The notes: generated by a model not told the origin, from the sequence alone. A DNA stretch of 64,000 nucleotides from Actinomycetales bacterium (GCA_018969715.1 JAGWXT010000004.1:77921-141920), one strand, 5' to 3'. Shown: positions 10,101 to 58,207, counted from the stretch's first letter. Translations and numbers: made by a program.

Positions 10101-10826
10101 ATGGCAGCGCCCGTGATCGCCATCATCCCGGCCCGCGGGGGCTCCCGGCGAGTTCCGGGCAAGAACATCCGCGACTTCCATGGCAGGCCGATGCTCGCCT
10201 GGACCATCGAGAACGCCCGCCTTGCCGGCATCTTCGACGAGATCGTCGTCTCCACCGATGACCCGCAGGTGAGCGGGGTCGCCGAGGCCAACGGGGCTTC
10301 GGCTCCGTTCGTGCGTCCGGCTGAGCTCGCCGACGACTACACCGGCACACAGCCGGTCATCGCCCATGCGATCAGCGCCCTGGCGCTGGCGGAATCGGCC
10401 CTCGTCTGCTGCCTCTACCCAGCGGCTGCACTACTGACGCCGGAGGATCTGCGCCTGTCCAGCACTATTGCCAAGGCCTCAGGTGGGGATCCGCCGTGTG
10501 CCTCCGTGGTTGCCTATCCGCATCCGGTCGCCCGCGCCCTGCGCCTGGACAGCTCCGGTCAACTCACCTGGCAGGATCCAGCCGCCGCACCGAGCCGAAC
10601 TCAGGACCTCCCCTCGCTCGTCCACGATGCAGGCCAGTTCTACTGGGCGAGCCCAGCGCGGTGGCGGTCCGGTGAGAGCCTGCTGAATGGGGCGTACGGC
10701 TATCAGCTGCCGGCATGGCGGGCGGTCGACATTGACACCGAGGAGGACTGGGACCACGCCGCGGTGATCGCGGCCGGGCTGCGCGCAATGGCGTGCGGGA
10801 TCAGTGGCGGCAGTCCTCCTCCATGA
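10101..10826 (+). CDS. pseF: pseudaminic acid cytidylyltransferase
   Basis: IIPARGGSRRVPGKNI, VSTDD, FVRPAELADD, RTQDL..HDAGQFYW, VDIDTEEDW motifs; abuts pseI. Confidence 0.88.
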   Translation: MAAPVIAIIPARGGSRRVPGKNIRDFHGRPMLAWTIENARLAGIFDEIVVSTDDPQVSGVAEANGASAPFVRPAELADDYTGTQPVIAHAISALALAESALVCCLYPAAALLTPEDLRLSSTIAKASGGDPPCASVVAYPHPVARALRLDSSGQLTWQDPAAAPSRTQDLPSLVHDAGQFYWASPARWRSGESLLNGAYGYQLPAWRAVDIDTEEDWDHAAVIAAGLRAMACGISGGSPPP

Positions 10827-11817
10827 TCGGGTCGCCCGGCCGGAACGGACGCCGGGCGGGCATCCCGCACACCTCGCTGAACCGCGCCGGGGGCAATCCC
10901 CCCGCCGGCCGAATCGAGGCGATGTTGTCGGCGGTGAAAACCTCGCCAACGCTGATGTCACGGACCGCACGCAACGATGGTCGGAATGCCAGCGATGCCC
11001 GCTCCCCCGGCGATGGCCCGAAGCGAGCGGAACCGAGCGCGGCGTGCGCATCACGGACCGCTGCCACCAGCGCAGCAAACTCCGCCGGCTCCGCGGAGAA
11101 GGCCGCATCCGGACCCCCGTCACTCCGGCTCAGGATCAGGTGTTTCTCAATGACCTGCGCGCCGAGGGCGGTTGCCGTAACCGCGGCAACATGTCCGAGA
11201 GTGTGGTCGGACAGGCCCACCGGCACGCCCCAGCGCTCGGCCATGACCGGAATCGCCCGCAGATCCATCTGCGACACAACCGCCGGATAAGCCGAATTGC
11301 ATCGCAACAGGGTGACCTGCGCCGCACCGGCGTCATGTGCGGTGCGCACCGCGTCATCGATCTCCTGCTCGCTCGCCATACCCGTCGAGATGAGCATCGG
11401 CCTGCCGGTCGCCGCGGCATGCGCAATGAGCGGCAGGTCGACGATCTCAAAGGAGGCGATCTTGTAGGACGGGCAGGCGAAACCTTCAAGAAAGTCCACC
11501 GATGTCTCGTCGAAGACCGATGACAACCACTGGATTCCCGCCGCCTCTGCCGCACCCACAAGCGTTGGCGTCCACTCCCACGGCGTTGCGGCCTCGGCGT
11601 AGAGGTCGGCCAGTTCCCGGCCATCCCAGAGCGTGCCACCGCCAACCCGGAAATCCGGATGCTCCGAGCGAACAGTGATCGTCGCCGGGGTGTAGTGCTG
11701 GAACTTCACTGCTGTCGCCCCACTGTCCGCGGCCACCCGAATCAATTCCACCGCCCGCTCAAGCCCACCGTTGTGATTGGCGGAAACTTCCGCGATGACC
11801 ATCGGCAGAGCGGTCAT
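10801..11817 (-). CDS. pseI: pseudaminic acid synthase
   Basis: IAEVSANHNG, AVKFQ.YT, YKIASFEI, ISTGMA, GLSDHTLG, IEKH, DAAFS motifs and a C-terminal SAF domain. Confidence 0.92.
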   Translation of the reverse strand: MTALPMVIAEVSANHNGGLERAVELIRVAADSGATAVKFQHYTPATITVRSEHPDFRVGGGTLWDGRELADLYAEAATPWEWTPTLVGAAEAAGIQWLSSVFDETSVDFLEGFACPSYKIASFEIVDLPLIAHAAATGRPMLISTGMASEQEIDDAVRTAHDAGAAQVTLLRCNSAYPAVVSQMDLRAIPVMAERWGVPVGLSDHTLGHVAAVTATALGAQVIEKHLILSRSDGGPDAAFSAEPAEFAALVAAVRDAHAALGSARFGPSPGERASLAFRPSLRAVRDISVGEVFTADNIASIRPAGGLPPARFSEVCGMPARRPFRPGDPIMEEDCRH

Positions 11818-12473
11818 GGGCGCGCCACGCTCCCCACATTTGACCCGTGATTCGCCGACCAACGAGATCCGGAGATCAACTGGATCGAGCGTTCACGACA
11901 CGTTGCCACAACCGCTGGACGCTCTAGACGCCACCTGTCGGCACTCAGATGGAGCACAAGGAGTGCACCAGCCTCAACCGGCGCGGGCATCAGATCATCC
12001 TCGCGAGGCGGCTCACCGCGAAAGCCGAGCCGGCCATAAAGCGCCCGAGCCCGGGCATTCTGTGCGAAGACCTCGCACGTCACCTGCACTAGGGAGTGCG
12101 CGAAAGCCTCATCAAGGCTGAGCGTTGCCGCAGCGAGACCGATGCCTCGACCCGCAACGGTCGGCTGCCCAAGGTAGATGCCCCATGATCCAGTGTCGTA
12201 GTTCGCCGGGAGTGCGTCGGTGTCCTGCTCATCCCGTCCCCCCACCTGAAGACTTCGCGTCAGGGTGACGAGCCCGACATCCACACCGTCAGCGACGATA
12301 ACTCGGGCGACATGCCGCGGTGAGATCAGCTGCCTGCCAAACCACACCCGGTGCTCTTCCTCGCCGATGATGTGCTGAGTTACGGAGTTCTCGCGAACCC
12401 AGGGCGAGTTCCGCCATGAACGCAGTTGGTTCATGTCACGAGTCTCAATTGGCCGCAGGCGCACAGCGATCAC
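11814..12473 (-). CDS. pseH: GNAT N-acetyltransferase of the Pse pathway
   Basis: LRSWRNSPWVR..HIIGEEEHRVWF, SWGIYL, CEVFAQNARARALYGRLGF; lies between pseG and pseI with overlapping start/stop codons. Confidence 0.8.
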   Translation of the reverse strand: MIAVRLRPIETRDMNQLRSWRNSPWVRENSVTQHIIGEEEHRVWFGRQLISPRHVARVIVADGVDVGLVTLTRSLQVGGRDEQDTDALPANYDTGSWGIYLGQPTVAGRGIGLAAATLSLDEAFAHSLVQVTCEVFAQNARARALYGRLGFRGEPPREDDLMPAPVEAGALLVLHLSADRWRLERPAVVATCRERSIQLISGSRWSANHGSNVGSVARP

Positions 12474-13537
12474 GCGAGCACCGCCGAGATGGCAGCAGCG
12501 ATCCGCTCCGCTCCGCGACCATCGATGACTTGGACGCCGTCGACTCCACGATCGCCGTTTGCCCCGTGACTGGCCCGGCCGGTACCCGGCCTCCCGCCAG
12601 CTACGGGCCCGGCGCGTCCGGGTCTCGCGGTAGCACACGCGTCGGTGACTGCGGCCAGCGTCATTGCCGGGTCATCTGGATCGACGGCAACAGCGGCAAC
12701 ACCCCAGCCGGCCGCCGCCCGCGCGATCTGCAGGTGGATGTCCTGCGTGCACACGGCCACCACCGGGGTGCGCAGGAAGCAGGCCTCCCAGAGCGTGATT
12801 CCCGCTCCGAGAACGGCCACACTGCTCGTTCGAAGGGCGCTCGGCAGATCGACCGGTTCGAGGCAGGAAATCCCGGCGCCACCAGCGAGTCGTGCTCGCA
12901 CCTCCGAAGACCGCGCGTTCACCTCGCCGATGACGACCCGAACCTGCCAACCTCCTTCAGCCAACGCCAGCGCCAACGGCTCGGTCAGCGCCTGCGGGTC
13001 GGCACCGCCAAGGCTGAGGCAGATGGTGTCCGAGTCACGATCGACACCGCCCACCAGGGAGCGGACCTCAGGCCGAATCAGGGTGTAACCGGATCCGATG
13101 AGCAGCATCGACGAGGGGAGGTGGGCGTAGGTTCCCCCGGCGGCACCTGGGTTGTGGTCAATGAGCAGCACTGGTTCCCTCGCCGATGACATCGCCTCGT
13201 CGTCGATGACGGCATAGGGAATCCCGGCAGCCGTGAGGCATTCGAAGTCGGCAGGCGCAAGGTGATACGCGTCCGTGATGACGAGGTCCGGCCGCAGCGC
13301 GCACAGGGCCGCGACACCAGCATCCGGAACTGCGGTCGCGCAGGTCACGAGGCTGAAGTTCTCATCGCGCAGCCGTTGGGCAACTGCATCGGGAACGCCG
13401 GCAGAAATGAGGGTTACGTGGTAGCCCTGCTCGAGCAGGGCCAGACCGAGGGTCCGGCAGCGCATGACGTGACCCATGCCGATGCGGCTGGACATGTCCG
13501 CGCGAATTGCCACCTGATGGGGATGCCGCCCGGCCAC
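12470..13537 (-). CDS. pseG: UDP-2,4-diacetamido-2,4,6-trideoxy-beta-L-altropyranose hydrolase
   Basis: IRADMSSRIGMGHVMRC, TDAY, IDD, LIRPE, SLGGADP, GAGITLWE, DGRGAERI motifs. Confidence 0.87.
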   Translation of the reverse strand: MAGRHPHQVAIRADMSSRIGMGHVMRCRTLGLALLEQGYHVTLISAGVPDAVAQRLRDENFSLVTCATAVPDAGVAALCALRPDLVITDAYHLAPADFECLTAAGIPYAVIDDEAMSSAREPVLLIDHNPGAAGGTYAHLPSSMLLIGSGYTLIRPEVRSLVGGVDRDSDTICLSLGGADPQALTEPLALALAEGGWQVRVVIGEVNARSSEVRARLAGGAGISCLEPVDLPSALRTSSVAVLGAGITLWEACFLRTPVVAVCTQDIHLQIARAAAGWGVAAVAVDPDDPAMTLAAVTDACATARPGRAGPVAGGRPGTGRASHGANGDRGVDGVQVIDGRGAERIAAAISAVLA

Positions 13538-13543
13538 GGCCGA

Positions 13544-14650
13544 TCAGTCCACCGGATCGGTGACGGCTGTCGCGAGCGCGTCGATGACCCGGTCCTGCTC
13601 GACATTGCTGAGCAGCGGAAACAGCGGCAGGCTCAACAGCCCGGAGTAGACCTCATCACAGGTGGGTGCGCTGTCCCAACCCGGTCGCAGCCGCGGTGTG
13701 ACGGAGTGGTGATGGACCGGGACGTAGTGAACCTGCACCCCGATACCGGCGAGCCGGAGGCGGTCGTAGACCTGCCGACGACTGCCGACGCGTACGGCGA
13801 ACAGGTGGTAGGAGTGCCGAGCGCCGGCCGGGGCCGCCGGCGGCAACTCGACCGGCAGGTCGGCGAGCGCGGTGCGGTAGCGGTCGGCGAGTTCGCCCCG
13901 TCGCTGGGTGAACTCCTCCAGTCGACGCAACTGCGACAGCCCGAGCGCAGCCTGGATATCGGTCAGCCGGTAGTTGAAGCCAAGTGACGCTGCGTCGTAC
14001 ACCCACCCGCCCCGCGCCGGGTCCCGGATGATCCCGTGGCTGCGGAATGCCCGCAACCGATCGGCGAGGCGATCGTCATTGGTCGTCACCATTCCGCCCT
14101 CGCCGGAGGTGATCGGCTTGACGGGGTGGAAGGAGAACACGCACATGTCACTGTGCGCGCAGTTGCCGACCGGTCCGTCCGGGGTCACCGCGCCGAGCGC
14201 ATGGGAGGCGTCCTCGATCACCACCCGGGGGCGATGCGCCAGGCGGGTCAGGTCCATGGGCAGTCCCGCATAGTGGACGGCGATAAGTGCGTCCACCGCC
14301 GGTACCAGCGTGGGGTCGGTGTTCCACGTGCGGGCATCGATGTCCACGACGCCGATGTCGGCGCCGACGTAGCGAGCGCAGTTGGCGCTGGCGATGAAGG
14401 TCAGGGGCGACGTGACGACGAAGTCCCCGGTGCCAAGGTCACCCGCAGCGCACGCCGCATGCAGCCCGGCAGTCGCCGAGGAGAACGAGACCGCGTGACG
14501 AGCGCCGACACTGTGCGCAACGGCCACCTCGAACCGCTCCACTGTCGGCCCCTGGGTGAGCCAGTCCCCGGCAAGAACGGCCGCGACAGCCGCTCGGTCA
14601 TCCTCGTCCACCCACTGCCGTCCGTACGGGATCAGCGGTGCCTCGGTCAA
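13544..14650 (-). CDS. pseC: UDP-4-amino-4,6-dideoxy-N-acetyl-beta-L-altrosamine transaminase (DegT family)
   Basis: IPYGRQ, WLTQGP, SSATAGLH, IEDASHALG, FSFHPVKPITSGEGG motifs. TTG start is inferred. Confidence 0.9.
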   Translation of the reverse strand: MTEAPLIPYGRQWVDEDDRAAVAAVLAGDWLTQGPTVERFEVAVAHSVGARHAVSFSSATAGLHAACAAGDLGTGDFVVTSPLTFIASANCARYVGADIGVVDIDARTWNTDPTLVPAVDALIAVHYAGLPMDLTRLAHRPRVVIEDASHALGAVTPDGPVGNCAHSDMCVFSFHPVKPITSGEGGMVTTNDDRLADRLRAFRSHGIIRDPARGGWVYDAASLGFNYRLTDIQAALGLSQLRRLEEFTQRRGELADRYRTALADLPVELPPAAPAGARHSYHLFAVRVGSRRQVYDRLRLAGIGVQVHYVPVHHHSVTPRLRPGWDSAPTCDEVYSGLLSLPLFPLLSNVEQDRVIDALATAVTDPVD

Positions 14651-14678
14651 CGCTTCCCCCGATGGCGACGGTTGCGCC

Positions 14679-15707
14679 TCATGGCATCCCGGTCTCGGCG
14701 GCGACCAGGGTGCGCAACTGGTCGACACTGAGCAAATCGGGGTTGGTATCGGAGGTGTACTCGAAACCGACGGGTACCGGAACCGCGCCCAGTTCGTCCA
14801 CGTAGCGCCGCCGCAGCCGGTCATCGCCACTGGGCAGGATCAGGTAGACCCCTGCATAGGCCACGGTGGACACGCTGTCGGCGCTGGTGATCATGGCCTC
14901 ATGCACCTTCTCACCCGGCCGGATCCCGACGATCTCCTGCCGGCACTCCGGGGCGATCGCGGTGGCCAGGTCGACCACCCGCAGTGCGGGGATCCGCGGC
15001 ACGATGATCTCACCGCCCAAGGCGTGTGCGATCGCCCAGAGCACCAGATCCACGCCCTCGTCGAGGGTGATGGAGAATCGCGTCATCGCCGGGTCGGTGA
15101 TGGGCAGCACCCCCGAGGGACGCTGCGACCGGAAGAACGGGACGACGGATCCGCGGCTGTTGAGCACATTGCCGTAGCGGACGACGCTGAAGCGGATGTC
15201 CTGGGCACCCCGCGAGGTGTTCGCTGCGACGAACAGCTTGTCGGAGGCGAGCTTGGTCGCCCCGTAGAGGTTGATCGGCGCCGCCGCCTTGTCGGTTGAC
15301 AGTGCGACCACCCGGCTGACCCCGGTGTCAAGGGCTGCCTCGATGACGTTCTGGGCGCCGATGACATTCGTGCGCACCGCCTCGAACGGGTTGTACTCGG
15401 CGGCCGGCACCTGCTTGAGGGCGGCAGCATGGACGACAATGTCGATCCCCCGCATGGCTCGCCGCAGTCGATCGGCATCCCGGACATCCCCGAGGAAGAA
15501 GCGCAGGATGTTCCCCGGGTCCGCCAACTCCGGTGAGGTGTCCATCTCGAACTGCTTGAGCTCATCGCGGCTGTAGACCACCAGCCGGCGCGGCGCGTAG
15601 TCATGGAAGACCCGCTGCACGAAGCGCCGCCCGAAGGAGCCGGTGCCGCCGGTGATGAGCAGTGAGCGGCCAGCAAGGGCATCGGCCAGGGCCGCATCGG
15701 GAATCAC
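14679..15707 (-). CDS. pseB: UDP-N-acetylglucosamine 4,6-dehydratase (inverting)
   Basis: ITGGTGSFG, YSRDELKQ, HAAALKQVPAAEYNPFE, LSTDKA, NLYGATKL, RYGNV, GIRPGEK motifs. Confidence 0.93.
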   Translation of the reverse strand: MIPDAALADALAGRSLLITGGTGSFGRRFVQRVFHDYAPRRLVVYSRDELKQFEMDTSPELADPGNILRFFLGDVRDADRLRRAMRGIDIVVHAAALKQVPAAEYNPFEAVRTNVIGAQNVIEAALDTGVSRVVALSTDKAAAPINLYGATKLASDKLFVAANTSRGAQDIRFSVVRYGNVLNSRGSVVPFFRSQRPSGVLPITDPAMTRFSITLDEGVDLVLWAIAHALGGEIIVPRIPALRVVDLATAIAPECRQEIVGIRPGEKVHEAMITSADSVSTVAYAGVYLILPSGDDRLRRRYVDELGAVPVPVGFEYTSDTNPDLLSVDQLRTLVAAETGMP

Positions 15708-37810: not shown

Positions 37811-38896
37811 TCAGCCTAGCCCGTGGGTGGCCGCATCCTCGTGCCCCGGCTCCGCCGTATCCCAGGGCAGCGGCTCGGCGGCCTGTCCGATCCCCGCACC
37901 CCATCGGCCGACACCGGACGGCAGGGGCAGTCCGAGGTGTTCATAGGTGCCGGCGGTTGCCACCCGGCCTCGCGGGGTCCGCTCGAGCAGGCCCGCGCGC
38001 ACCAGGTAGGGCTCGCTCACCTCAGCAACAGTCTGCTGCTCCTCGCCGACAGCGACAGCAAGCGTGGACAGCCCCACCGGTCCACCGCCGAAGCGCGCCA
38101 CCAGCGCCCGCAGCAGCGCCCGGTCAAGATGATCCAGGCCCCGCTGGTCGATGTCGAACAGGCGGAGGGCCTGTTCGGCGACATAGGTGTCGATGTGCCC
38201 ATTGCCGTGAACCTCGGCATAGTCGCGCACCCGGCGCAGCAGCCGGTTGGCGATCCGTGGCGTGCCGCGGCTGCGAGCGGCGATGAGCGCCCCGGCGGCC
38301 GGCGCGCACGGCACCCCGAGCAGTCCAGCCGAGCGCTCGACGATGCGCTCGAGGTCGGCCGGCTCGTAGAAGTCGAGATGGGCAGTGAAGCCGAAACGAT
38401 CCCGCAGCGGGCTGGGCAGCAGTCCGGCACGCGTGGTGGCACCGACGAGGGTGAAGGCGGGCAGCGCCAGGGGAATCGCCGTCGCACCGGCTCCCTTACC
38501 GATGACGACGTCGACTCGCAGGTCCTCCATCGCGACGTACAGCATCTCCTCAACCGGCCGGGCGAGCCGATGCACCTCGTCCACGAAGAGCACCTCACCC
38601 TCCAGCAGCGAGGTGAGGACCGCCGCCATGTCGCCGGCATGCTGGATGGCCGGGCCGCTGGTGATCCGAATCGGCACGCCCAACTCCTCAGCCACGATGG
38701 CCGCCAAGGTGGTCTTGCCCAGACCGGGCGGGCCGGCGAGCAGGACATGATCGGCCGCCCGGCCACGGGCACGCGCTGCAGCCAGCACCAGCCCAAGCTG
38801 CTCCCGCACTCGACGCTGGCCGATGAACTCACCGAGGCGGCGCGGCCGCAGCGCCGCCTCGTGACGTCGCTCCTCGGCATCGGCCTGAGCGGTCAC
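37811..38896 (-). CDS. ruvB: Holliday junction helicase RuvB
   Basis: [53 protein letters not shown] motifs. Confidence 0.96.
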
Positions 38897-39483
38897 GGTC
38901 GGCCACCGAGGATCCGCAGACAGGCCCGCAGCCCGGCCGCAGCGTCGATGACGGCGCCGGGCTCCTCGGACTGGACCCGCGCAAGTGCCTCCTCGGCCTG
39001 TCCCGCGGGCCAGCCGAGGGTGACCAGCCCGGCGAGGACGTCGGCCTGCCAATCCGTGGCAGCCACCACCGCAGGTGACGGGGGTGGCGCGAGCCGATCA
39101 GAAAGCTCCAGCACGATCCGACCGGCACCCTTGCGTCCGATCCCCGGCACCCGCGTGAGGGGACCGGGGTCCGCACCTGCGATGGCCGCCCGGAGTCCGG
39201 ACGCGCCGAGCACCGACACCGCCGCCAGCGCCGTCCGGGGTCCGACCCCGCTGACGCCGAGGAGCGCCTCGAAGACGATGCGCTCCTCGTCATCGGAGAA
39301 TCCGAAGAGCGTCCAACCGTCCTCCCGGGTGACCAGCGAGGTCGCGAGGGTGACCGGCTGGTCGAGGCTGGCATGGGCGACAGCGGAGGCCGACGGCAGT
39401 ACCCGCAGACCCACCCCGCCGACATCGATGACGATCGCCTCCGCCGACACCTGCCGCACGATTCCCCGCACGAATGAGATCAC
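38893..39483 (-). CDS. ruvA: Holliday junction branch migration protein RuvA
   Basis: [36 protein letters not shown] motifs. Confidence 0.94.
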
Positions 39484-39499
39484 TGACGCACCCCTGAGA

Positions 39500-39991
39500 T
39501 CATCGACGCACTCCGACCGGGCCGGATCGCCAGATGTGGCAGATCGCCAGCGCCATCGCATCGGCGGCGTCGGCTGGCTGCGGTCGCTGCTGCAGGTCCA
39601 GCAGACGCATCACCATGCGGGTGACCTGATCCTTATTCGCACGTCCATGCCCCGTGACCGATGCCTTCACCTCGGTCGGAGTGTGCGAGCCCAGCGGCAG
39701 GCCACGTCGCTGGGCGCAGACCATGACCAGCCCGGCCACCTGCGCGGTCCCCATCACCGAGCGCACGTTCTGCTGGCTGAAGACCTCCTCCACCGCCACC
39801 GCATCCGGGTGGTGGACCTCAACCAGCGCATTGAGCTCTTCCCAGATCTGGAGCAGCCGCTGTGGGTGGTGCGCCGTTGCGCTTGAGGTGAGGACGACGG
39901 AGGCGACCAAGCGCGGTGACCGTCCCCGATCACCGTCCACCACCGCCACCCCGCAGCGCGTGAGACCCGGATCGACTCCGAGGACCCGCAC
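39500..39991 (-). CDS. ruvC: crossover junction endodeoxyribonuclease RuvC
   Basis: VLGVDPGLTRCG, AVEEVF, TPTEVK, GRANKDQV, DAADAMALAICH motifs. Confidence 0.95.
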   Translation of the reverse strand: MRVLGVDPGLTRCGVAVVDGDRGRSPRLVASVVLTSSATAHHPQRLLQIWEELNALVEVHHPDAVAVEEVFSQQNVRSVMGTAQVAGLVMVCAQRRGLPLGSHTPTEVKASVTGHGRANKDQVTRMVMRLLDLQQRPQPADAADAMALAICHIWRSGPVGVRR

Positions 39992-50826: not shown

Positions 50827-51687
50827 TCAGGGATCGCGATCGGCGGCCGCGTGCTGCCGGAACTCCCGCGCCAGCCGTTCCATCGTGGAGCCCGGTCCCA
50901 CCCCAGCTGCCTGCCAGATCACCGTCCCGTCCGCAGCGAGGACGCGGTCAACGGGCTGAAGGCCCCGTAGCGAGGACGTGATGGCCACCTCATCGGCGCG
51001 GGTCAGATCCGCCAGTGTCAGGTGGCACTGGTCGACGTCGAACCATGTGCAGACAAGCTCGCGGGTGATCCCCGGCAGGCAGCCACTGGTGAGGTCGGGA
51101 GACCGTAGCCGTCCCCTGCTGTGGAGGACGATGTTCGAGCCGCTGCCCTCGCATAGGGCCCCGGTATCGCTGAGGAGCAGCGCCTCGGTGGCACCCGCAC
51201 GACGCGCCGCAGCCAGTGCGATGACGTTCTCGGCGTAGGAGGTCGACTTCACCCCGGTCAGCGCCGACCTGGTCGGTCGTCGCCAGTCGACGAGGAGCAG
51301 GGTCGCCGCCCCGACCGTCGGCAGACTCGGTGCAGCGGCGAGGATCCGCGTTCCCGGCCCCGGGCGGCGCTCTGAGCCCAGCGGCCCCTGGCCCCCGGTG
51401 AGAGTCAGGCGCAGCCGCGCCAGCGCCCCCAGGCGCATCCGATCGGCATCCAGCAGCAGGGCGATCTCCTGCCGCAGCACATCGGCCGGCGGGCAGTGCA
51501 GTCCCAGTCGATGCGCGGACCGCGCCAGACGCTCCAGATGGCGGCGGACGGCGAAGGCCGACCCGTGATCGACGCGAACGGTCTCGAATACCCCGTCACC
51601 GACGGTGAGCCCGTGGTCGCACACCGAGATCCCGGCCGACCCGATCGGCCCGAGTCGACCGTTGAGGACCACGTGCTCGGCGGTCAC
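50827..51687 (-). CDS. class IV PLP aminotransferase / aminodeoxychorismate lyase-like
   Basis: DHGLTVGDGVFET, HLERL, KSTSYAEN, EGSGSN, GCLPGITR, TSS motifs. Confidence 0.88.
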   Translation of the reverse strand: MTAEHVVLNGRLGPIGSAGISVCDHGLTVGDGVFETVRVDHGSAFAVRRHLERLARSAHRLGLHCPPADVLRQEIALLLDADRMRLGALARLRLTLTGGQGPLGSERRPGPGTRILAAAPSLPTVGAATLLLVDWRRPTRSALTGVKSTSYAENVIALAAARRAGATEALLLSDTGALCEGSGSNIVLHSRGRLRSPDLTSGCLPGITRELVCTWFDVDQCHLTLADLTRADEVAITSSLRGLQPVDRVLAADGTVIWQAAGVGPGSTMERLAREFRQHAAADRDP

Positions 51688-52778
51688 CGGGCCACCGCAA
51701 CCGGTCCGGTCCAGCCGATCGTCCGACCCGGGTCGCTGGCCAGCCGGATCAGCCGGTGCGACTTGAGCTCCGTCTCCTCCCATTCGGCGAGCGGATCGGA
51801 TGACCAGGTGATGCCGGCACCCGTGCCGAATCGGATGTGGCTGCCGTCGAGGGCGAAGGTGCGGATCGCCACCGCGAGGTCGGCGGTCCCCTCATCGGAG
51901 TCCACCCAGCCGACTGCGCCGCAGTAGAAGCCGCGGGGTGTCGGCTCCAACCCGCGGATCAGCCGCAGGGCAGCGATCTTCGGGGCGCCCGTGACCGATC
52001 CTGGGGGGAAGGTGGCGGCGACGATCTCGGGCCACCCAACGCCATTGCGGAGCCTCGCCTGCACGGTGGACTGGAGGTGGCGCAGACCGGGATGGGCTAC
52101 CTCGGCGAGCAGTTCGGTGACCTCCACGCTTCCGGTGCGGGCGATTCGTCCGAGGTCGTTGCGGACTAGATCGACGATCATGACGTTCTCCGCCTGATCC
52201 TTCTCGCCGAATGGCTGCCCATCGCCGGGTCGGGCAGTGCCCTTGATCGGGGCGGACTGAACCAGGTCTCCCTGCCGGTGCAGGAAGGTCTCCGGCGAGG
52301 CGCTCACCAGCGTGACCGACTGTCGCCAGCCGGTCACGCTGTGCGCGGGCAGGTGGAGCAGCCCGGCATGCGGAGCGGGGTTGTGGCGGAGGATCTCGGC
52401 CAGCAGGGTCAGCGCCGGGTGTGGGCTGTCAGCAGCGCCCGAGAGCAGGGGCGGCATGCCCGCCCGAAGGATCCGGCAGATGTTGGCCTGGTAGACCTCA
52501 CCGCGTCCGATTGCCGCGTGGGTCGCGTGCACGGACGCCTGGTAGGCCACAGCGCTCATTGAGGAGCGCCACTCCTCGCGGCCCGGGCCCGCCCACGGGG
52601 CTGCCAGGGGCACCGCACCAGTGCGGACCTGTGCGAATCGCGCGCAGACAGCCGGTCCATCGAACGGCAGGGCGACCGCCCACCACCCGCCCCGATCCAC
52701 GGCGGCCAGATCGCTGGTGATCTCCCTCAGGCCGGTGGCAAGTCGGCCACCGAACCATGCGATCGCCTCATCCGCCAT
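51684..52778 (-). CDS. chorismate-binding enzyme (PabB/TrpE-like component I)
   Basis: GEVYQAN, SASPETF, PIKGT, ENVMIVDLVRND, FPPGSVTGAPK, AVAIRT, EWEETELK motifs. Confidence 0.9.
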   Translation of the reverse strand: MADEAIAWFGGRLATGLREITSDLAAVDRGGWWAVALPFDGPAVCARFAQVRTGAVPLAAPWAGPGREEWRSSMSAVAYQASVHATHAAIGRGEVYQANICRILRAGMPPLLSGAADSPHPALTLLAEILRHNPAPHAGLLHLPAHSVTGWRQSVTLVSASPETFLHRQGDLVQSAPIKGTARPGDGQPFGEKDQAENVMIVDLVRNDLGRIARTGSVEVTELLAEVAHPGLRHLQSTVQARLRNGVGWPEIVAATFPPGSVTGAPKIAALRLIRGLEPTPRGFYCGAVGWVDSDEGTADLAVAIRTFALDGSHIRFGTGAGITWSSDPLAEWEETELKSHRLIRLASDPGRTIGWTGPVAVAR

Positions 52779-52906
52779 CAGCCCATTCTCGCCACCGGGA
52801 TGGCCGGTCGGCGCCCGACGCACCAGCACGGTGGACGTCGCGCGAGCCGACACAGTCGGCGGGCCGCCAGGTGTGGGGTATCGTGGCCGCGGCCGGTCTT
52901 CGGCTG

Positions 52907-52979
52907 GCGGACGTGGCTCAGTTGGTAGAGCATCACCTTGCCAAGGTGAGGGTCGCGGGTTCGAATCCCGTCGTCCGCT
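52907..52979 (+). tRNA. tRNA-Gly(GCC)
   Basis: GCGGACGTGGCTCAGTTGGTAGAGCA-TCACC TTGCCAA GGTGA-..GGTTCGAATCCC..CGTCCGCT. Confidence 0.95.
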
Positions 52980-53162
52980 CCGTATTTGCGCGAATGTGCA
53001 CGATTTGACGCGGACTCGCAAGTGCACGAGGCGCAAACGTGGCCTGAGTGCGAACGCGGCCGTCGAACGACGGGTGTCGAATGCTGGCGAGGTTCACCCG
53101 CGACGTGCGCCGCTCCCCATCGCTCAATCGCGAGGATCTCGCTCACTGTTCGTGCCCGCGGC

Positions 53163-53218: not shown

Positions 53219-55063
53219 CTACCTCACCCGGAGAGCGCGTGTCACGTACGGCAGGCCGGAGCGTCCTTCCGCATCAATCTCGTAGCTTCCGGCCTTCTTC
53301 ACCCGGACATTGACGGCTCCGGCGCCGGCGTTGTTCACCCGGACGGTGGTGCGCACAGCCGTCTGGCCGCTGCTGTCGTTGGAGATGAACACCGTCACCC
53401 TGCTGTTGGCCTGGAACCCACTGACCTGAACCCGGAACCGGGCATTGGGCTTGACCTGCGAAGGTGCACTCACCGCCGGCTGGCCGGATGCACCGATGGC
53501 GATGGTCGCCGAGGTGCTCGCCTGCGAGGCGGGCATCGACGAGACCGGGTTGCCAACGGGCAGGCCGAACTGGTTGCCCGTCCCGCTGGCGGTGACGGTC
53601 ACCGTCCCGGAGTCGCTGTTGGCGGTGGTGAGGGTCGCCACCGCCTGTCCGGCGGCGCTGGTCACCGCACTGGTGGCCTTGCTGCCGTTGCTGAACTGCC
53701 CCGCCGCCGAGGAGATCGCGAAGTTCACCGACACACCGGCGGGAACGGGGTTGCCGAACCCATCGGTCACCGTTGCGGTGAGGTTCACGGTGGCGCCGGC
53801 GTTGATCTGGGCCGGTGGCGGGGTGAGAACGATATTGCGCGCCGCCGCACCCGAGGTTGCGAAGGCAACCGAGGCGCTGAGGCTATTGCCCGCACTCGCC
53901 GTGAGCGTGCCGGTACCGGTCTGGGTGCTCGCCCACCACACCGTCGCGGTGTTGTTCGCGCCCACCACCGACAGCGACGGTCGGGCGTTGGCGATGGTGC
54001 CGCCCGGGTTGAGCACCAATCCGCCCTGGCTGGCGCTGAACGTCACCGCTGAGGCCGCACCGGAGGTCGTCACCGATACCGGCACGTACGTCACGCCCGG
54101 CTGGAGGGTGCCCGCGGTCGGGACGGTCAGTCCGCTGGTGAAGGCGGCCGCCGCCACGCCGTTGACGGTGAGGTTGGACAGGGTGGCGCTGCCGACCGCG
54201 GCCGACCACACCACGTAGGTGTTCGCCGTGGCGGCGGCAGCATTCGGGACGGTCGCGGTCACCTGGACGGTGTCGGTGAAATAGGTGGAGGTGGCGTTCG
54301 GCCCCGTGTACCCGATGCTGAACTGGCCGTTGGCCCCAGTGGTGGCAGTCGACAACTGGGCATTCTGGTTCGGTCCGACCGTGACCTTGCCGGTGACCGT
54401 CGCCCCGCTCACCGGCTGGCCGAAGGAATTCACGACGGTGCCCGCGATCGTCGTCGCGCCACCGGCGACCCCGGTGTACCCGCTGGTCGAGGACAGGGTG
54501 ATCGCGGAGGACCCCTGTGAGTAGATGATGCCGAGGGCGCTGTCCGCACCGGTCTCGGAGTAGGTGGTGTTGACGATCACGAAGTTGTTCAGGGCGGTCG
54601 CCCCACCGACGAAGGTGAACGTTGCCACGCCATTGACGAGGGCGGCGGTCCCACTGGCCGGGCTGGGCTGGGGGCTGGTCACGGAGCCGTTGCCGGCGCG
54701 GTTGACAGCCGTCCAGGCGACCGTGCCATTGGCGATGAACCCGGCACTTGCCCACTGCAGGGTCAGGCCGGAGGTGCCGGCGGGGACGCAGACGACCGGA
54801 ACTCCCGGCTGACCGGTGATGCTTGCGGGGCAGCCGGCCTGCCCGCCGCTGATAAACGATGCCGGCGAGGTGAGGGTCAGCGTCGAGCCGCCGATCTGGG
54901 CCTGCGCCGGTGCCGCGGCGCCGGCGACCCCGGCAACGACGAGCAGTCCGGCGGCCACGAGACTGACCGAGCTGCGCAGTGGGCGCGACCGCAAGGAGCG
55001 TAACCGCGATGGAACCGCCGACCCGAGTGGGCCGGTGCTCCGCGAGATGGATGATAGGGACAC
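53219..55063 (-). CDS. secreted Ig-like (Big_1-type) repeat surface protein, candidate S-layer protein or adhesin
   Basis: Signal peptide ending APAQA; T/A/G/S/V-rich beta-strand sequence; GTVVNSFGQPV and TATVTDGFGNPV Ig motifs; RBS AGGAAAGG. Confidence 0.8.
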   Translation of the reverse strand: MSLSSISRSTGPLGSAVPSRLRSLRSRPLRSSVSLVAAGLLVVAGVAGAAAPAQAQIGGSTLTLTSPASFISGGQAGCPASITGQPGVPVVCVPAGTSGLTLQWASAGFIANGTVAWTAVNRAGNGSVTSPQPSPASGTAALVNGVATFTFVGGATALNNFVIVNTTYSETGADSALGIIYSQGSSAITLSSTSGYTGVAGGATTIAGTVVNSFGQPVSGATVTGKVTVGPNQNAQLSTATTGANGQFSIGYTGPNATSTYFTDTVQVTATVPNAAAATANTYVVWSAAVGSATLSNLTVNGVAAAAFTSGLTVPTAGTLQPGVTYVPVSVTTSGAASAVTFSASQGGLVLNPGGTIANARPSLSVVGANNTATVWWASTQTGTGTLTASAGNSLSASVAFATSGAAARNIVLTPPPAQINAGATVNLTATVTDGFGNPVPAGVSVNFAISSAAGQFSNGSKATSAVTSAAGQAVATLTTANSDSGTVTVTASGTGNQFGLPVGNPVSSMPASQASTSATIAIGASGQPAVSAPSQVKPNARFRVQVSGFQANSRVTVFISNDSSGQTAVRTTVRVNNAGAGAVNVRVKKAGSYEIDAEGRSGLPYVTRALRVR

Positions 55064-55164
55064 AGTGTGCCTTTCCTGGAGCCGATTGGGGGACTGCTCG
55101 TGTTTGGGGCTGGTTCAGCCCCTTTGTTGAGCCGACGAGGCGATGGACCGCCACCGTTGCCGGC

Positions 55165-55193
55165 ATACTACGCTCACCCCGGGGACGTGTGAG
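55165..55193 (-). promoter_or_regulatory. candidate housekeeping-sigma promoter of the surface-protein gene
   Basis: Minus strand CTCACA-N17-TAGTAT, about 100 nt upstream of the GTG. Confidence 0.45.
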
Positions 55194-55207
55194 GGTCCGA
55201 TGACAAC

Positions 55208-55278
55208 GGTGGAGTGGCCGAGAGGCGAGGCAACGGCCTGCAAAGCCGTGTACACGGGTTCGAATCCCGTCTCCACCT
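55208..55278 (+). tRNA. tRNA-Cys(GCA)
   Basis: GGTGGAGTGGCCGAGAGGCGAGGCA-ACGGC CTGCAAA GCCGT-..GGTTCGAATCCC..CTCCACCT. Confidence 0.95.
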
Positions 55279-55281
55279 CGG

Positions 55282-55355
55282 GGGCGATTAGCTCAGGTGG
55301 CTAGAGCGCATCCTTGACACGGATGAGGTCACAGGTTCAAGTCCTGTATCGCCCA
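55282..55355 (+). tRNA. tRNA-Val(GAC)
   Basis: GGGCGATTAGCTCAGGTGGCTAGAGCG-CATCC TTGACAC GGATG-..GGTTCAAGTCC..TCGCCCA. Confidence 0.95.
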
Positions 55356-55413
55356 CTCGCGGCCGCGTCGTCGGCCTGCGGCTGGCGGGGCGGCAACCGG
55401 CTAGCGTCATCGG

Positions 55414-56208
55414 GTGCTCGGGGATCTCACCTTCACCCTCGGCCGGTCACTGGGCTGGCTGCTCACCCCGGCCACGCTCTGCCTCATCGCACTGGTCACC
55501 ACGGGCATCCTGCTGCTGCGGCGCGGATCCCGCGGCGCGCGGATCATTGGCGGATCCGCCTGCGTGATCGCAGTCCTCCTCGCCTGGTACCCACTGCCGA
55601 CGGCGATCATCGCCCACCTTGAGCGCGTGCCCGGAGCAGTTGACTGGACGAGCGTCAAACCCGGTGAGCTCACCGGGGTGATCGTCCTCGGCGGGGGTGG
55701 TGCGATTCCCGGCTCCCTCACCGAGGAGCGCGGCTCGGTCCAGCTCAATGCGGGCGCCGAGCGGATCACGACCGCGGCGGCAATGGCCCACCGGGATCCG
55801 CGCCTGCTGATCCTCGTCTCTGGGGGATGGGCCGCGCTGGTCGGCGACGGTCCCGGCGAGGCCGATGCCATGACGGCCTTCCTCGCAGAGCAGTCCATCA
55901 GTGGCCCACGGGTGATCAGTGAGCGGCGGTCCCGCAACACCCGGGAGAACGCGGCCCGCACGGCCCCCATCGTCGCCAGCCACCCCGGCCGGTGGGGGCT
56001 CATCACCTCCGCCACGCACATGACGCGCGCGCAGGCGGAGTTCACCGCGGCCGGCGTCGACGTCGTTCCACTGCCGGTGGACTACCAGACCGGCACCGCT
56101 GCCCCGCGGCTGATCGGCTTCGACCCGACCGCGGGACTCAACCGGTGGTCCCTTGCCACCTACGAGGTGCTCGCCCGGGTCCAGCAGGCGCTGGCCGGAC
56201 TCGGCTAG
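55414..56208 (+). CDS. YdcF/ElyC-like DUF218 membrane protein
   Basis: Two N-terminal TMs; IVLGGG, ER, LVSGG, EA..M, SRNTRENA, LITSATHMTRA, PVDY. Confidence 0.9.
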   Translation: MLGDLTFTLGRSLGWLLTPATLCLIALVTTGILLLRRGSRGARIIGGSACVIAVLLAWYPLPTAIIAHLERVPGAVDWTSVKPGELTGVIVLGGGGAIPGSLTEERGSVQLNAGAERITTAAAMAHRDPRLLILVSGGWAALVGDGPGEADAMTAFLAEQSISGPRVISERRSRNTRENAARTAPIVASHPGRWGLITSATHMTRAQAEFTAAGVDVVPLPVDYQTGTAAPRLIGFDPTAGLNRWSLATYEVLARVQQALAGLG

Positions 56209-56218
56209 GCCCGGGACC

Positions 56219-58207
56219 GTGGCAGCCCTCTTCAGACGGATCGACCGCATCGTCGTCACCCTCGACCCCCGCACGGAGCGGATGGCCCGCCGCGGTGGCG
56301 GCCGGGTCTACTTCCTGCACGCGGACTCGCAGTGTCAGGCCGTTGCGGGACCGCAGCCATCGGGGTGCGTGCCGATCGACCTCGAGCACACCGCACTGCC
56401 GGAATCAGCCGGCCGCAGCATCTGGGGGTCCCGGGCAGAGCTCAGCGCGATCCTTGATGACCTTGACGCCACCGGGTTGGGTGACCGCTGCGCCGATGCC
56501 ACCGCGGCGATCATCCGCCGCGAGCGTCGGATACCCCTGGTTGCCGAGGCGGTGACAGGTCCATGGCTGCGCGGGTGGCTCCATGAGCAGGTCGCCCTGG
56601 CCTGGAGCACGCTGGCACCGATCGCCCTGTGGTGGGGTGCTCATCACCGGGCGGAACCTGTCGGGTCCGGCCGCGCAGCAGCGCCCCGGGTGGCCATCTG
56701 GGTGTCGGGGACATGGCAGGCCCGATGTGTGCAACCCCTGTTCGGCCCCGGCGTCCGGGCGCGCGTCTGGCCGGTGCGGCTCGCCCGAATGTGGGGACTG
56801 CTCGCCGCCCTGCGGCGTCGCTTGGTCCCGGCAGTCGCGTCCCGGGCCCAATCCCCGGCCCCATCCCCGGCCCCATCCCCGGCCCCATCGCCGGCCCAAT
56901 CGCCGGCCCAATCCCCGGCCCCATCGCCGGCAGCGGCGTCCGACCCGCGGGCACGATGGTCGGACGCTGAGGTCCTATTCCTCCCGCATCGGGGGCTGAG
57001 CTACGGGTCGCTGTTCGCCTTCGACCAGTTCTTCTCCGACGATCCGACCAGCCCACTGCACCCCAGCCGGATGGCGTTCGTCTCCTATGACCCCGATTCC
57101 CTGCGGCAGCCCTCCGAGCAGCCCATGGCAGCCCTGCCGCAGCCCTCAACCGCCGCGACCGTCGGTCGGCTGATGCAGATCCTCGCGAGAGCCCTCGGCA
57201 CGCCGACGCGCTGGCCGCGGCCGCGCAGCTGGACCGCGCTGGCCGCGATGGCGAGCGTCAGCGCACGCGCCCTCGCCTACGCCCCCGTCCTGCGTCGGGC
57301 CTTCCCCGCGGCGCGCGTTGCGGTGGCCGGGTACGGCGACCTCGTGCCCCCGGTGGTCGCACTGGGGCTGGCGATCGCCGGCATCCGACTGGTCACCTGC
57401 CAGGAGCGGGCCAACCTGGCCTTCCTCGATGCGTTGGGAACCCGTGCGGACACCCTGCTGGCCATCAGTGAGACCCTCGGCGCGGCTCTGCTCACGAAAC
57501 CGTCGACGAGCGTCCGCCATGCCGTGCCCGTGGGGATGTGGCGAACCGATGTCCTGCTGGCGCGCCGCGCGAGCACGCCGCCGCCCGTCGAGGCGCGACC
57601 GCCACACTCCGTGCGGATCGTCGCCCTGCCCTTCCACGCAGCAGCCTCCCAGGCCGACTCGCGGGCGACCATCTTCACCTCGTGGACGTCGGTCAGTCAC
57701 TTCATCGACGGGGTCTGCGGGGTTGCCGACGCCCATCCGACGGCGCGGGTCACCATTCGCAGCAAGTCCATGACCCCGGGGGTGGGCCCACCGCTTGCCC
57801 AGACGTGGCAGCGGGTTGAGGACCACGCACGCGTGGCGGTCGATCGGGACTACGCCACCCCCTACCGCAGCTACCACCTGTGCGCCGAGGCCGACCTCGT
57901 CATCGCGAAGTACACCTCCCTCGCCGATGAGTGCCTCGCCGTCGGCGTCCCCGTGCTTCTCCACGACTTCAGCCATCAGCACGCGGCCTTCGCCTCGGGG
58001 ATCTACGACTACCTGCCGGACCGGCTGTGGGTGCATAGCGATGCCGAACTGCATGAGCGCGTCGACTGGGTACTCGCCGATGGCGGCGCGGACTTCCGAG
58101 CGTGGTGGGAGCCCCATCGCCGGCGCATCTACGGGGACTGGAACGATGGCCAGGTGCGTGCACGTCTTCGCCGGCATGTCCTGGCCCTCCTGCAGGGGCG
58201 GCAATGA
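56219..58207 (+). CDS. hypothetical protein, putative surface-carbohydrate glycosyltransferase-like
   Basis: Long ORF placed tightly between neighbours (stop overlaps the msrB ATG). The C-terminal half reads like a GT-B Rossmann domain (CQER, VGMWRTD, VTIRSK, ADLVIAKYTSLADECLAVGVPVLLHD). Confidence 0.55.
   Translation: MAALFRRIDRIVVTLDPRTERMARRGGGRVYFLHADSQCQAVAGPQPSGCVPIDLEHTALPESAGRSIWGSRAELSAILDDLDATGLGDRCADATAAIIRRERRIPLVAEAVTGPWLRGWLHEQVALAWSTLAPIALWWGAHHRAEPVGSGRAAAPRVAIWVSGTWQARCVQPLFGPGVRARVWPVRLARMWGLLAALRRRLVPAVASRAQSPAPSPAPSPAPSPAQSPAQSPAPSPAAASDPRARWSDAEVLFLPHRGLSYGSLFAFDQFFSDDPTSPLHPSRMAFVSYDPDSLRQPSEQPMAALPQPSTAATVGRLMQILARALGTPTRWPRPRSWTALAAMASVSARALAYAPVLRRAFPAARVAVAGYGDLVPPVVALGLAIAGIRLVTCQERANLAFLDALGTRADTLLAISETLGAALLTKPSTSVRHAVPVGMWRTDVLLARRASTPPPVEARPPHSVRIVALPFHAAASQADSRATIFTSWTSVSHFIDGVCGVADAHPTARVTIRSKSMTPGVGPPLAQTWQRVEDHARVAVDRDYATPYRSYHLCAEADLVIAKYTSLADECLAVGVPVLLHDFSHQHAAFASGIYDYLPDRLWVHSDAELHERVDWVLADGGADFRAWWEPHRRRIYGDWNDGQVRARLRRHVLALLQGRQ
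56845..56928 (+). repeat. 7 x 12-bp in-frame coding repeat (A[PQ]SP)n
   Basis: GGCCC(C/A)ATC(C/G)CC x7. Confidence 0.92.

Follow-up and report, generated by a model that had tools for sequence, protein, structure and literature searches.

An unnamed family of GT-B-type enzymes linked to pse gene clusters as a candidate for pseudaminic acid transfer in an actinobacterium

We analysed positions 53,219 to 58,207 of a 64,000-nucleotide stretch of DNA from an Actinomycetales bacterium (GCA_018969715.1, JAGWXT010000004.1:77921-141920; the whole stretch is called the window), which hold the genes for a secreted immunoglobulin (Ig)-like protein (P0001), a DUF218 protein (P0002) and a large open reading frame (ORF) product (P0003). 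P0003 is probably, at a rough probability of 0.6, a cytoplasmic enzyme of the GT-B glycosyltransferase class, belonging to an unnamed and widespread family, that would transfer pseudaminic acid (Pse) to an envelope glycan. The genes, the family and its genomic link to pse genes were established in the analysis, and its fold class is supported by structural matches. All three genes are genuine; the G+C content at the codon positions of each frame follows the pattern of genuine genes in this genome.

53219..55063, minus strand: P0001, 614-aa secreted protein with about six Ig-like beta-sandwich domains
55414..56208, plus strand: P0002, DUF218 membrane protein of 264 aa (Pfam DUF218)
56219..58207, plus strand: P0003, 662 aa, candidate cytidine monophosphate (CMP)-pseudaminic acid-dependent GT-B glycosyltransferase (fold matches, homologs in pse clusters)

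P0003 is a member of a large family without a name

The open frame of P0003 extends over 56153-58207 (residue numbers are counted from 56153), with the GTG at 56219 as its likely start, in agreement with the N-termini of aligned homologs and with the start in an existing ESM Atlas record. Neither Pfam (E <= 1) nor NCBIfam assigned P0003 to a family, in line with the initial annotation, which had listed an unassigned ORF of about 660 aa. An exhaustive HMMER search with a four-sequence profile against 1.84 billion representatives of clusters at 50% identity returned 496 proteins at E <= 1e-3, mostly 600-650 aa in length; 405 of them remained at E <= 1e-10 and 232 at E <= 1e-30. A word-index protein search found three relatives with P0003 and again three, none of them named, with a 76-member profile; as the HMMER search showed the family to be large, the word-index search was limited by its sensitivity. 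The relatives of P0003 include P0004 (98% identity) and P0005 (55%), and ten family members that were looked up were unnamed or called 'hypothetical protein' and came from metagenome-assembled genomes (MAGs) of Actinomycetota. P0003 and two homologs had no match in phage and plasmid collections, and a tblastn search of 50,697 phage records with P0003 and the homolog from locus L006 (see below) found nothing. In the Atlas cluster nearest to P0003 (631 aa, 74 members), Uroviricota was the commonest phylum among the four members with a known phylum.

In the alignment of 76 members from which all conservation counts are taken (A3), conservation is concentrated in the C-terminal half, the N-terminal half being variable.

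56960..58204, plus strand: conserved core of P0003, residues ~270-684 (alignment A3)
56840..56931, plus strand: 12-bp tandem repeat, 7.7 copies, 91% matches (Tandem Repeats Finder score 135)

The core carries the motifs QER(P), G-x-x-R-x-D, R-x-K, (K)-x-T-S-L-x-D-E and H-D-Y, with near-invariant residues at E418 (75/76), R419 (76/76), G461 (76/76), R464 (75/76), D466 (75/76), R536 (75/76), K538 (74/76), S589 (76/76), E593 (76/76) and D605 (71/76). The tandem repeat encodes a Ser/Pro/Ala-rich (S/Q)PAP linker in the variable half (translation SPAPSPAPSPAPSPAQSPAQSPAPSP), which is missing from most aligned homologs, and the repeat could vary in length between strains. As P0003 lacks a signal peptide and any convincing membrane helix, it should act in the cytoplasm.

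Homologs of P0003 are found in pse gene clusters

A distant pse pathway, recognised in the initial annotation, is indeed present in the window as six Pse-type genes, which provide a best match for all six steps of Pse synthesis without P0003.

10101..15707, both strands: pse gene set (Pfam and NCBIfam)
10101..10826, plus strand: PseF, 236.9 bits, above the NCBIfam cut-off
10801..11862, minus strand: PseI, 405.8 bits, above the NCBIfam cut-off
11814..12638, minus strand: PseH-like GNAT protein, 58.2 bits, best match below cut-off
12470..13537, minus strand: PseG-like protein, 127.4 bits, best match below cut-off
13544..14830, minus strand: PseC, 409.2 bits, best match below cut-off
14679..15707, minus strand: PseB, 482.6 bits, above the NCBIfam cut-off

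The set is flanked by genes for a flavin mononucleotide (FMN) reductase and an acyl-CoA dehydrogenase, and no glycosyltransferase, flippase or transporter gene adjoins it. Its G+C content is 0.67-0.69 (0.70-0.72 in the surroundings), and it is possibly an acquired island.

When one-genome-per-species contigs were scanned with an alignment of 11 members, 32 pattern matches were obtained, and seven loci (L001-L007) were confirmed among them. The loci stem from MAGs of Actinomycetota (three), Methanoregulaceae, Desulfovibrio, Desulfovibrionales and an alphaproteobacterium (one each) and carry homologs that are 23-51% identical to one another. Around these homologs 81 ORFs were scanned; they were picked with a greedy longest-ORF rule, under which genes can be missed. 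In five of the seven loci (L001, L002, L004, L006 and L007), a NeuB-family (NeuB/PseI) synthase gene was present within 10 kb of the homolog, and a sixth, L003, ended in a PseF fragment at the contig end; co-occurrence with pse, neu or leg genes, which the initial annotation had named as a check of its proposal, was thus borne out. With NCBIfam models, PseG scored above cut-off in L001, L002 and L004, PseB in L004 and L007, PseC in L007 (in L004 it was a best match below cut-off), PseF in L007 and PseI in L006. For the genes around the homologs, these assignments indicate the Pse route.

In the Desulfovibrionales MAG (L007, 6484-13552), the gene order is PseB, PseC, PseF, homolog, a GNAT-NeuB (pseH-pseI) fusion and a HAD phosphatase; three ORFs of 370-454 aa without a family are located upstream of the PseB-PseC-PseF-homolog operon. 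A common variant cluster was seen in the actinobacterial MAGs (L001, 2696-6893; L002, 3750-8819; L004, 835-8594), consisting of a PseG that carries a fused GNAT or formyltransferase domain, an ATP-grasp enzyme, a CysQ/inositol-monophosphatase-like phosphatase and a NeuB-like synthase with a score between those of the PseI and NeuB models. The additional tailoring genes of this variant suggest a modified nonulosonate. In L002, L004 and L006 the pse cluster has ABC-transporter genes next to it, which fits export of a polymer or glycolipid. Except for a cytidylyltransferase-kinase fusion 4 kb from the homolog in L004, no polyol-phosphate activation genes were seen beside the homologs. In the Methanoregulaceae MAG (L003, 1-3528), a short family member (337 aa, or truncated) adjoins the gene for a methyltransferase and that for a putative glycosyltransferase of TIGR04326/BFO_1060-like type; two candidate types of nonulosonate transferase thus stand next to each other. 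An apparent fusion of the L005 homolog with a GT2 domain was discarded as an artefact of one long frame, the two being separate adjacent genes.

The P0003 family has GT-B features and belongs to none of the known families tested

The initial annotation had described the C-terminus of the large ORF as GT-B-looking, and model, fold matches and structural neighbours agree with this. In an AlphaFold model built on a four-sequence alignment, residues 485-680 show a Rossmann-type alternation of strands and helices, with a block-mean predicted local distance difference test (pLDDT) score of ~43-89, mostly above 60. All top matches of this model in a Foldseek search of the PDB were GT-B proteins (UDP-GlcNAc 2-epimerases, OtsA and GtfA; E ~3e-7 to 3e-5), the best of them with a target-normalised template modelling (TM) score of ~0.5. 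The Atlas model of P0003 (predicted TM score 0.74) has neighbours in TagF-like, Capsule_synth, LpxB, MurG and PseG clusters (TM 0.4-0.57), and in several of these neighbour clusters 13-40% of the members carry the Capsule_synth annotation. The motif ADLVIAK-x-TSL-x-DE-x-LA-x-G-x-P (S589 and E593 in 76/76, P600 in 70/76) corresponds to a GT-B C-terminal nucleotide-binding motif, in which a strand is followed by small residues (S/T), a helix bearing an invariant Glu, G-x-P and a further strand, and which we take to be typical of MurG/PseG-type enzymes; hhalign places it on the matching segment of PseG, within an overall match that is not significant. The recurrent weak matches of the 76 members to Pfam (Glyphos_transf in 4/76, best 8.3e-5; Glycos_transf_1 in 3/76; Epimerase_2 in 3/76) and NCBIfam (TIGR04417 in 16/76, TIGR04396 in 7/76, TarB in 4/76, BFO_1060 in 3/76) all concern GT-B or polysaccharide families and lie far below the cut-offs. 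Searched by sequence against PDB chains, the four-sequence profile gave nothing meaningful and the 76-member profile no chain at E <= 10.

Membership in known families was examined one family at a time. P0003 had no Glyphos_transf (TagF/TagB) match at E <= 1, and no family member reached the gathering score of that model. Capsule_synth (GT107-GT118; KpsS, KpsC, KpsS1) was absent from P0003 and did not figure among the 25 families with the most matches in the 76 members. BFO_1060 did not match P0003 and matched three of the 76 members at a best E of 0.019, the curated cut-off of 200 bits being unreached; a comparison of the family profile with the TIGR04326/BFO_1060-like neighbour in L003 was not significant. 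Of the motifs of bacterial sialyltransferases (GT38/52/80) described in PMC5420450, HP is not conserved (its one recurrent occurrence has H303 in 48/76 and P304 in 41/76, in the N-terminal part of the core), and D/E-D/E-G is represented by D592-E593 without the following Gly. TIGR03590 (PseG) did not match P0003, and hhalign gave a probability of 0.2 for the family profile against four PseG sequences. No Maf-type domain was detected in P0003 with Pfam at E <= 1. Judged by these comparisons, P0003 resembles a CMP-ulosonate or TagF-type GT-B transferase and is a member of none of the families tested (Maf, Capsule_synth, BFO_1060, Glyphos_transf, enzymes with sialyltransferase motifs, PseG). Because the family fails the models of Maf, Capsule_synth, BFO_1060 and TagF, it is a candidate new pseudaminyltransferase family.

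The Pse transferases found in open-access papers and bioRxiv were just those of the Maf/PseE, FlmG, Tannerella forsythia and KpsS1 types. According to PMC5420450, the T. forsythia proteins Tanf_01245 and TFUB4_00887 are GT-B proteins of TagB-like type whose genes neighbour those for CMP-nonulosonate; their donor was deduced from that context, and knock-outs lose the terminal sugar. The P0003 family is likewise GT-B/TagB-like and located beside CMP-nonulosonate genes, with CMP-Pse suggested by context; it differs in length (~620-660 aa versus ~445 aa in T. forsythia) and, as detailed above, in its relation to BFO_1060, the NCBIfam family of the T. forsythia enzymes, and in the HP and D/E-D/E-G motifs. 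KpsS1 of Acinetobacter baumannii is reported to be a retaining Pse transferase that founded GT118 (PMC12887879, citing Walklett et al. 2024). This enzyme and the 3-deoxy-D-manno-octulosonate (Kdo) transferases KpsS and KpsC share with the proposed activity the use of CMP-activated ulosonic acid donors, and their Rossmann-type folds are related to that of P0003, but the Capsule_synth domain sets them apart. Of the named families, TagF/TagB (Glyphos_transf) shows the best, albeit weak, sequence relationship to the P0003 family and recurs among its structural-neighbour clusters, and with the CDP-glycerol donor of these enzymes, too, CMP is released; the family nevertheless stays below the gathering score throughout and its 76-member profile reaches no PDB chain. 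TIGR04417 ('polysaccharide biosynthesis PFTS motif protein') and TIGR04396 ('surface carbohydrate biosynthesis protein') are similar in being uncharacterised proteins of polysaccharide clusters with weak local matches to the C-terminal or middle motifs of the family; these matches amount to 16-21 bits versus cut-offs of 100-125, and P0003 itself has none. A literature search in the same sources for TIGR04417, TIGR04396 and related model names found no relevant paper. Maf/PseE and FlmG, flagellin transferases proposed or shown to use CMP-Pse, differ from P0003 in their acceptor as well as in their domain, and no flagellar genes were seen in the window or the loci.

P0002 is a DUF218 protein probably co-transcribed with P0003

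The gene that the initial annotation had placed just past the tRNA genes as a DUF218 gene proved to be one: Pfam DUF218 covers residues 88-252 of P0002 with E 2.2e-25 and 89.6 bits (gathering score 27.6). The ElyC model NF007794 aligns nearly end to end (residues 6-260 of 264, E 1.4e-13), and hydrophobic segments at 12-36 and 43-69 precede the DUF218 domain. P0002 ends 10 nt upstream of GTG 56219, as read from the junction sequence; since the distance is this short, P0002 and the large ORF are probably co-transcribed. In Escherichia coli, the DUF218 proteins SanA, ElyC and YgjQ hydrolyse undecaprenyl-diphosphate-linked polysaccharide precursors according to a bioRxiv preprint of October 2026, in which the family is renamed Upr-like (10.64898/2026.10.14.759067). 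P0002 is like these proteins in carrying the DUF218 domain behind N-terminal hydrophobic segments and in its full-length alignment to the ElyC model, but it comes from an actinobacterium and, with 50.9 bits versus the equivalog cut-off of 205, is no ElyC equivalog. By analogy with the E. coli proteins in the preprint and from its adjacency to P0003 in one genome, P0002 may serve the same polyprenyl-linked pathway as P0003.

P0001 is a secreted multi-Ig protein with a basic C-terminal domain

P0001 has a signal-peptide-like N-terminus, with a basic n-region, a hydrophobic segment at 28-54 (the only strongly hydrophobic one in the protein) and an AQA site at 53-55. The initial annotation had considered it to be anchorless, and motif, hydrophobicity and Pfam checks found none of the features looked for (LPXTG, LAXTG, lipobox, SLH, C-terminal hydrophobic or transmembrane segment). 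Pfam gave Big_1 above cut-off (E 2.8e-10) and otherwise just weak Ig-like matches, NCBIfam one weak Ig-like match and nothing further; no lattice-forming or wall-binding domain was detected with Pfam, NCBIfam or structural neighbours, and no SLH, CWB2 or similar anchoring module with the two databases.

53222..53473, minus strand: basic C-terminal Ig-like domain of P0001, residues 531-614; 13 K+R versus 4 D+E, isoelectric point 11.65

The reported contrast between a Ser/Thr-rich, low-charge body and a basic end was also reproduced: residues 57-530 contain 5 K+R, 5 D+E and 27% Ser+Thr, and the charge of the last 84 residues is as listed. Four full-length relatives of P0001 were available (100, 89, 38 and 36% identity). 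P0008, P0009 and P0010 (89, 38 and 36%) have a body of net charge 0 or -1 and a net charge of +7 to +10 in their last 84 aa, with +10 and a neutral body retained in the two distant ones; because the same split recurs in these three proteins, we regard it as a trait of the family and not as chance. An AlphaFold model (five-sequence alignment) is all-beta with about six sandwich domains at a low overall pLDDT of 54.5, its best-modelled part being residues 531-614 (seven predicted strands, pLDDT ~75-86). Foldseek returned complement C3/C5, alpha-2-macroglobulin, invasin-like proteins and adhesins at TM ~0.2, with the archaeal S-layer chain 7ptp, which has Ig-like domains, at rank 33 and likewise TM ~0.2; the Atlas neighbours are strings of Ig/macroglobulin-like domains (TM 0.35-0.45). 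P0001 is read as a secreted multi-Ig surface or wall-associated protein with fold matches that do not point to an S-layer.

Other features of the window

The window has a G+C content of ~70% and a gene content that, by sequence, fits an actinobacterium (phosphatidylinositol mannoside (PIM) acyltransferase, PimA-like GT4, DUF3000). The tRNA genes were located with ARAGORN:

52907..52981, plus strand: tRNA-Gly
55208..55279, plus strand: tRNA-Cys(GCA), between the divergent surface-protein and DUF218 genes
55282..55356, plus strand: tRNA-Val(GAC), in the same interval

The longest frame of a chorismate-binding (PabB/TrpE-like) gene (51684-53036, minus strand) overlaps tRNA-Gly, and its true start therefore lies further downstream within the gene. 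Carotenoid genes coding for a phytoene desaturase-like amine oxidase, a phytoene synthase and a lycopene cyclase domain protein are located at 1-2907. A 687-aa open frame at 37823-39886 (plus strand) was considered as a paralogue of P0003 and rejected, as a sequence comparison showed no similarity; this frame, which has no family and lies opposite several minus-strand ORFs between yajC and a YebC-like gene, is probably not a gene. A scan for promoters and terminators gave no promoter-like site and one terminator-like site versus 1.4 expected in shuffles.

Discussion

Four observations lead us to favour a transferase. The conserved C-terminal and varied N-terminal halves of the family are what would be expected of enzymes that share a donor and differ in their acceptors; the pse set of the window has no adjacent transferase; the T. 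forsythia transferases for Pse and legionaminic acid (Leg) are also GT-B proteins of TagB-like type with CMP-sugar genes beside their own (PMC5420450); and the window as well as L001, L002 and L004 contain a separate PseG, to which the family is unlike in profile comparison. The donor, the acceptor and the roles of the two neighbouring proteins we infer as follows. The conserved C-terminal half would bind a nucleotide-activated donor, most likely CMP-pseudaminic acid supplied by the pse genes 40 kb away, and the variable N-terminal half would bind the acceptor. The acceptor of Pse would most likely be an envelope glycan, linked to a lipid or still growing, on the cytoplasmic side of the membrane rather than a protein, and this glycan would then be exported. 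The DUF218 protein might act on the same polyprenyl-linked pathway by releasing polysaccharide from its carrier, as described for the E. coli proteins, and P0001, which no result connected with P0002 or P0003, would be exported to the surface or the cell wall.

Several findings weigh against Pse transfer by P0003. In the window its gene is separated from the pse genes by the 40 kb mentioned above, and the conserved context elsewhere comes from a sample of only seven loci, three of which belong to one actinobacterial clade (46-51% identity); L005, a 5-kb contig starting inside the homolog, holds no nonulosonate gene. The ORFs scanned near the homolog in L006 and, within 10 kb, in L007 did not include a PseG, so that a role inside Pse synthesis instead of transfer is possible there. 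A DUF218 or Big_1 gene was present in none of the seven loci among the 81 ORFs scanned, that is, the adjacency to DUF218 is not conserved. The AlphaFold model of P0003 is of low confidence (overall pLDDT 53.9, with a poor N-terminal half), its best fold matches are 2-epimerases, not transferases, and the HP motif is not conserved. Finally, P0003 has Pro at position 542 (57776-57778) versus Trp in 73/76 and Arg at position 560 (57830-57832) versus Asn in 70/76, and it may thus be unlike the homologs within pse clusters in specificity or activity. By eye, the alignment shows that the nearest relative, P0005, also lacks both Trp542 and Asn560, and the two proteins may represent a subfamily with altered specificity.

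Some of these points would suit an enzyme of the pathway itself, such as a GT-B nucleotide-sugar hydrolase, a 2-epimerase or an enzyme modifying a UDP- or CMP-linked intermediate of a Pse derivative. The UDP-GlcNAc 2-epimerases at the top of the Foldseek matches, the weak Epimerase_2 matches, the missing PseG in L006 and L007 and the tailoring genes of L001, L002 and L004 (ATP-grasp, CysQ-like phosphatase, formyltransferase), which suggest modified sugars, are consistent with this role, but the separate PseG in the window and in those three loci, the hhalign probability of 0.2, a protein size about twice that of PseG/NeuC with a variable N-terminal half, and a pse set in the window that has a best match for every Pse step without P0003 argue against it, and we consider such an enzyme unlikely. 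To much the same degree improbable, if anything slightly more so, is a TagF-like or other GT-B polymerase using a different donor (CDP-polyol or another sugar), which would build the backbone of a Pse-bearing glycan without handling Pse. Glyphos_transf is the commonest weak Pfam match of the family, TarB matches are as frequent, and TagF-like clusters are among the Atlas neighbours; on the other hand, no member reaches any family cut-off, beside the homologs no polyol-phosphate activation genes were seen apart from the L004 fusion, and the L007 gene lies within a pseBCF...HI operon with no other polymer genes in between.

The initial annotation went further and joined the three genes into one system, in which P0001 would be an anchorless S-layer protein that is either O-glycosylated with Pse by the large ORF or held by a Pse polymer made by this ORF and the DUF218 protein. 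Pse carries a carboxylate, hence a Pse polymer would be anionic, and some actinomycetes use Pse in teichulosonic-acid-type wall polymers. Nonulosonate-containing wall polymers in actinomycetes were reportedly described by Tul'skaya et al. in 2011. The near-neutral Ser/Thr-rich body and the basic C-terminal Ig-like domain, kept in distant relatives, and the presence of 7ptp among the fold matches would also suit such a protein. Nonulosonate wall polymers (teichulosonic acids) of actinomycetes are covered by PMC13011467, which deals with the teichulosonic acid cluster of Streptomyces coelicolor, and by the reference list of 10.1101/2025.04.24.650519. Against the combined system stand the absence of Big_1 and DUF218 genes from the seven loci, the generic fold matches, the lack of any detected lattice-forming or wall-binding domain and the divergent transcription of the genes, with two tRNA genes between them. 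As the candidate transferase is cytoplasmic and P0001 is exported by Sec, direct glycosylation of P0001 would need an unseen route, and it would be unusual for a Sec substrate to be glycosylated in the cytoplasm. We therefore regard the system as a whole as very unlikely. Of the proposal that the large ORF transfers Pse, the part concerning a GT-B-like enzyme linked to pse genes is upheld and the part naming P0001 as the acceptor is not supported; the joining of the three genes into one system finds no support in the seven loci, and P0001 as an S-layer protein or as a glycosylated protein is not supported by any result. Overall, the observations of the initial annotation were confirmed and its interpretation was partly supported. 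Docking of the basic C-terminal domain of P0001 on an anionic Pse polymer is chemically coherent, as a speculation. A long shot that would extend it is that a new pseudaminyltransferase family of bacteria and archaea and an Upr-like DUF218 protein make a teichulosonic-acid-type Pse wall polymer, on which the basic domain of P0001 docks, and that Actinomycetota thereby have a novel type of surface layer or non-covalent surface-protein display. For the S-layer part to be of importance, experimental support would be required.

Transfer of Pse to an envelope glycan, the reading of P0003 that we prefer, concerns a class of enzymes of which few are known: the transferases of Pse or Leg to surface structures are Maf/PseE, FlmG, the T. 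forsythia enzymes and KpsS1/GT118, and knowledge of nonulosonate transferases is called 'scarce' in PMC5420450. An unnamed family of about 500 clusters at 50% identity, found repeatedly in pse clusters across phyla, is a testable candidate transferase family. If this reading is true, the family would explain pse clusters that have no adjacent transferase, as in the window, would improve the annotation of many environmental genomes and would provide an extra enzyme for making Pse glycoconjugates.

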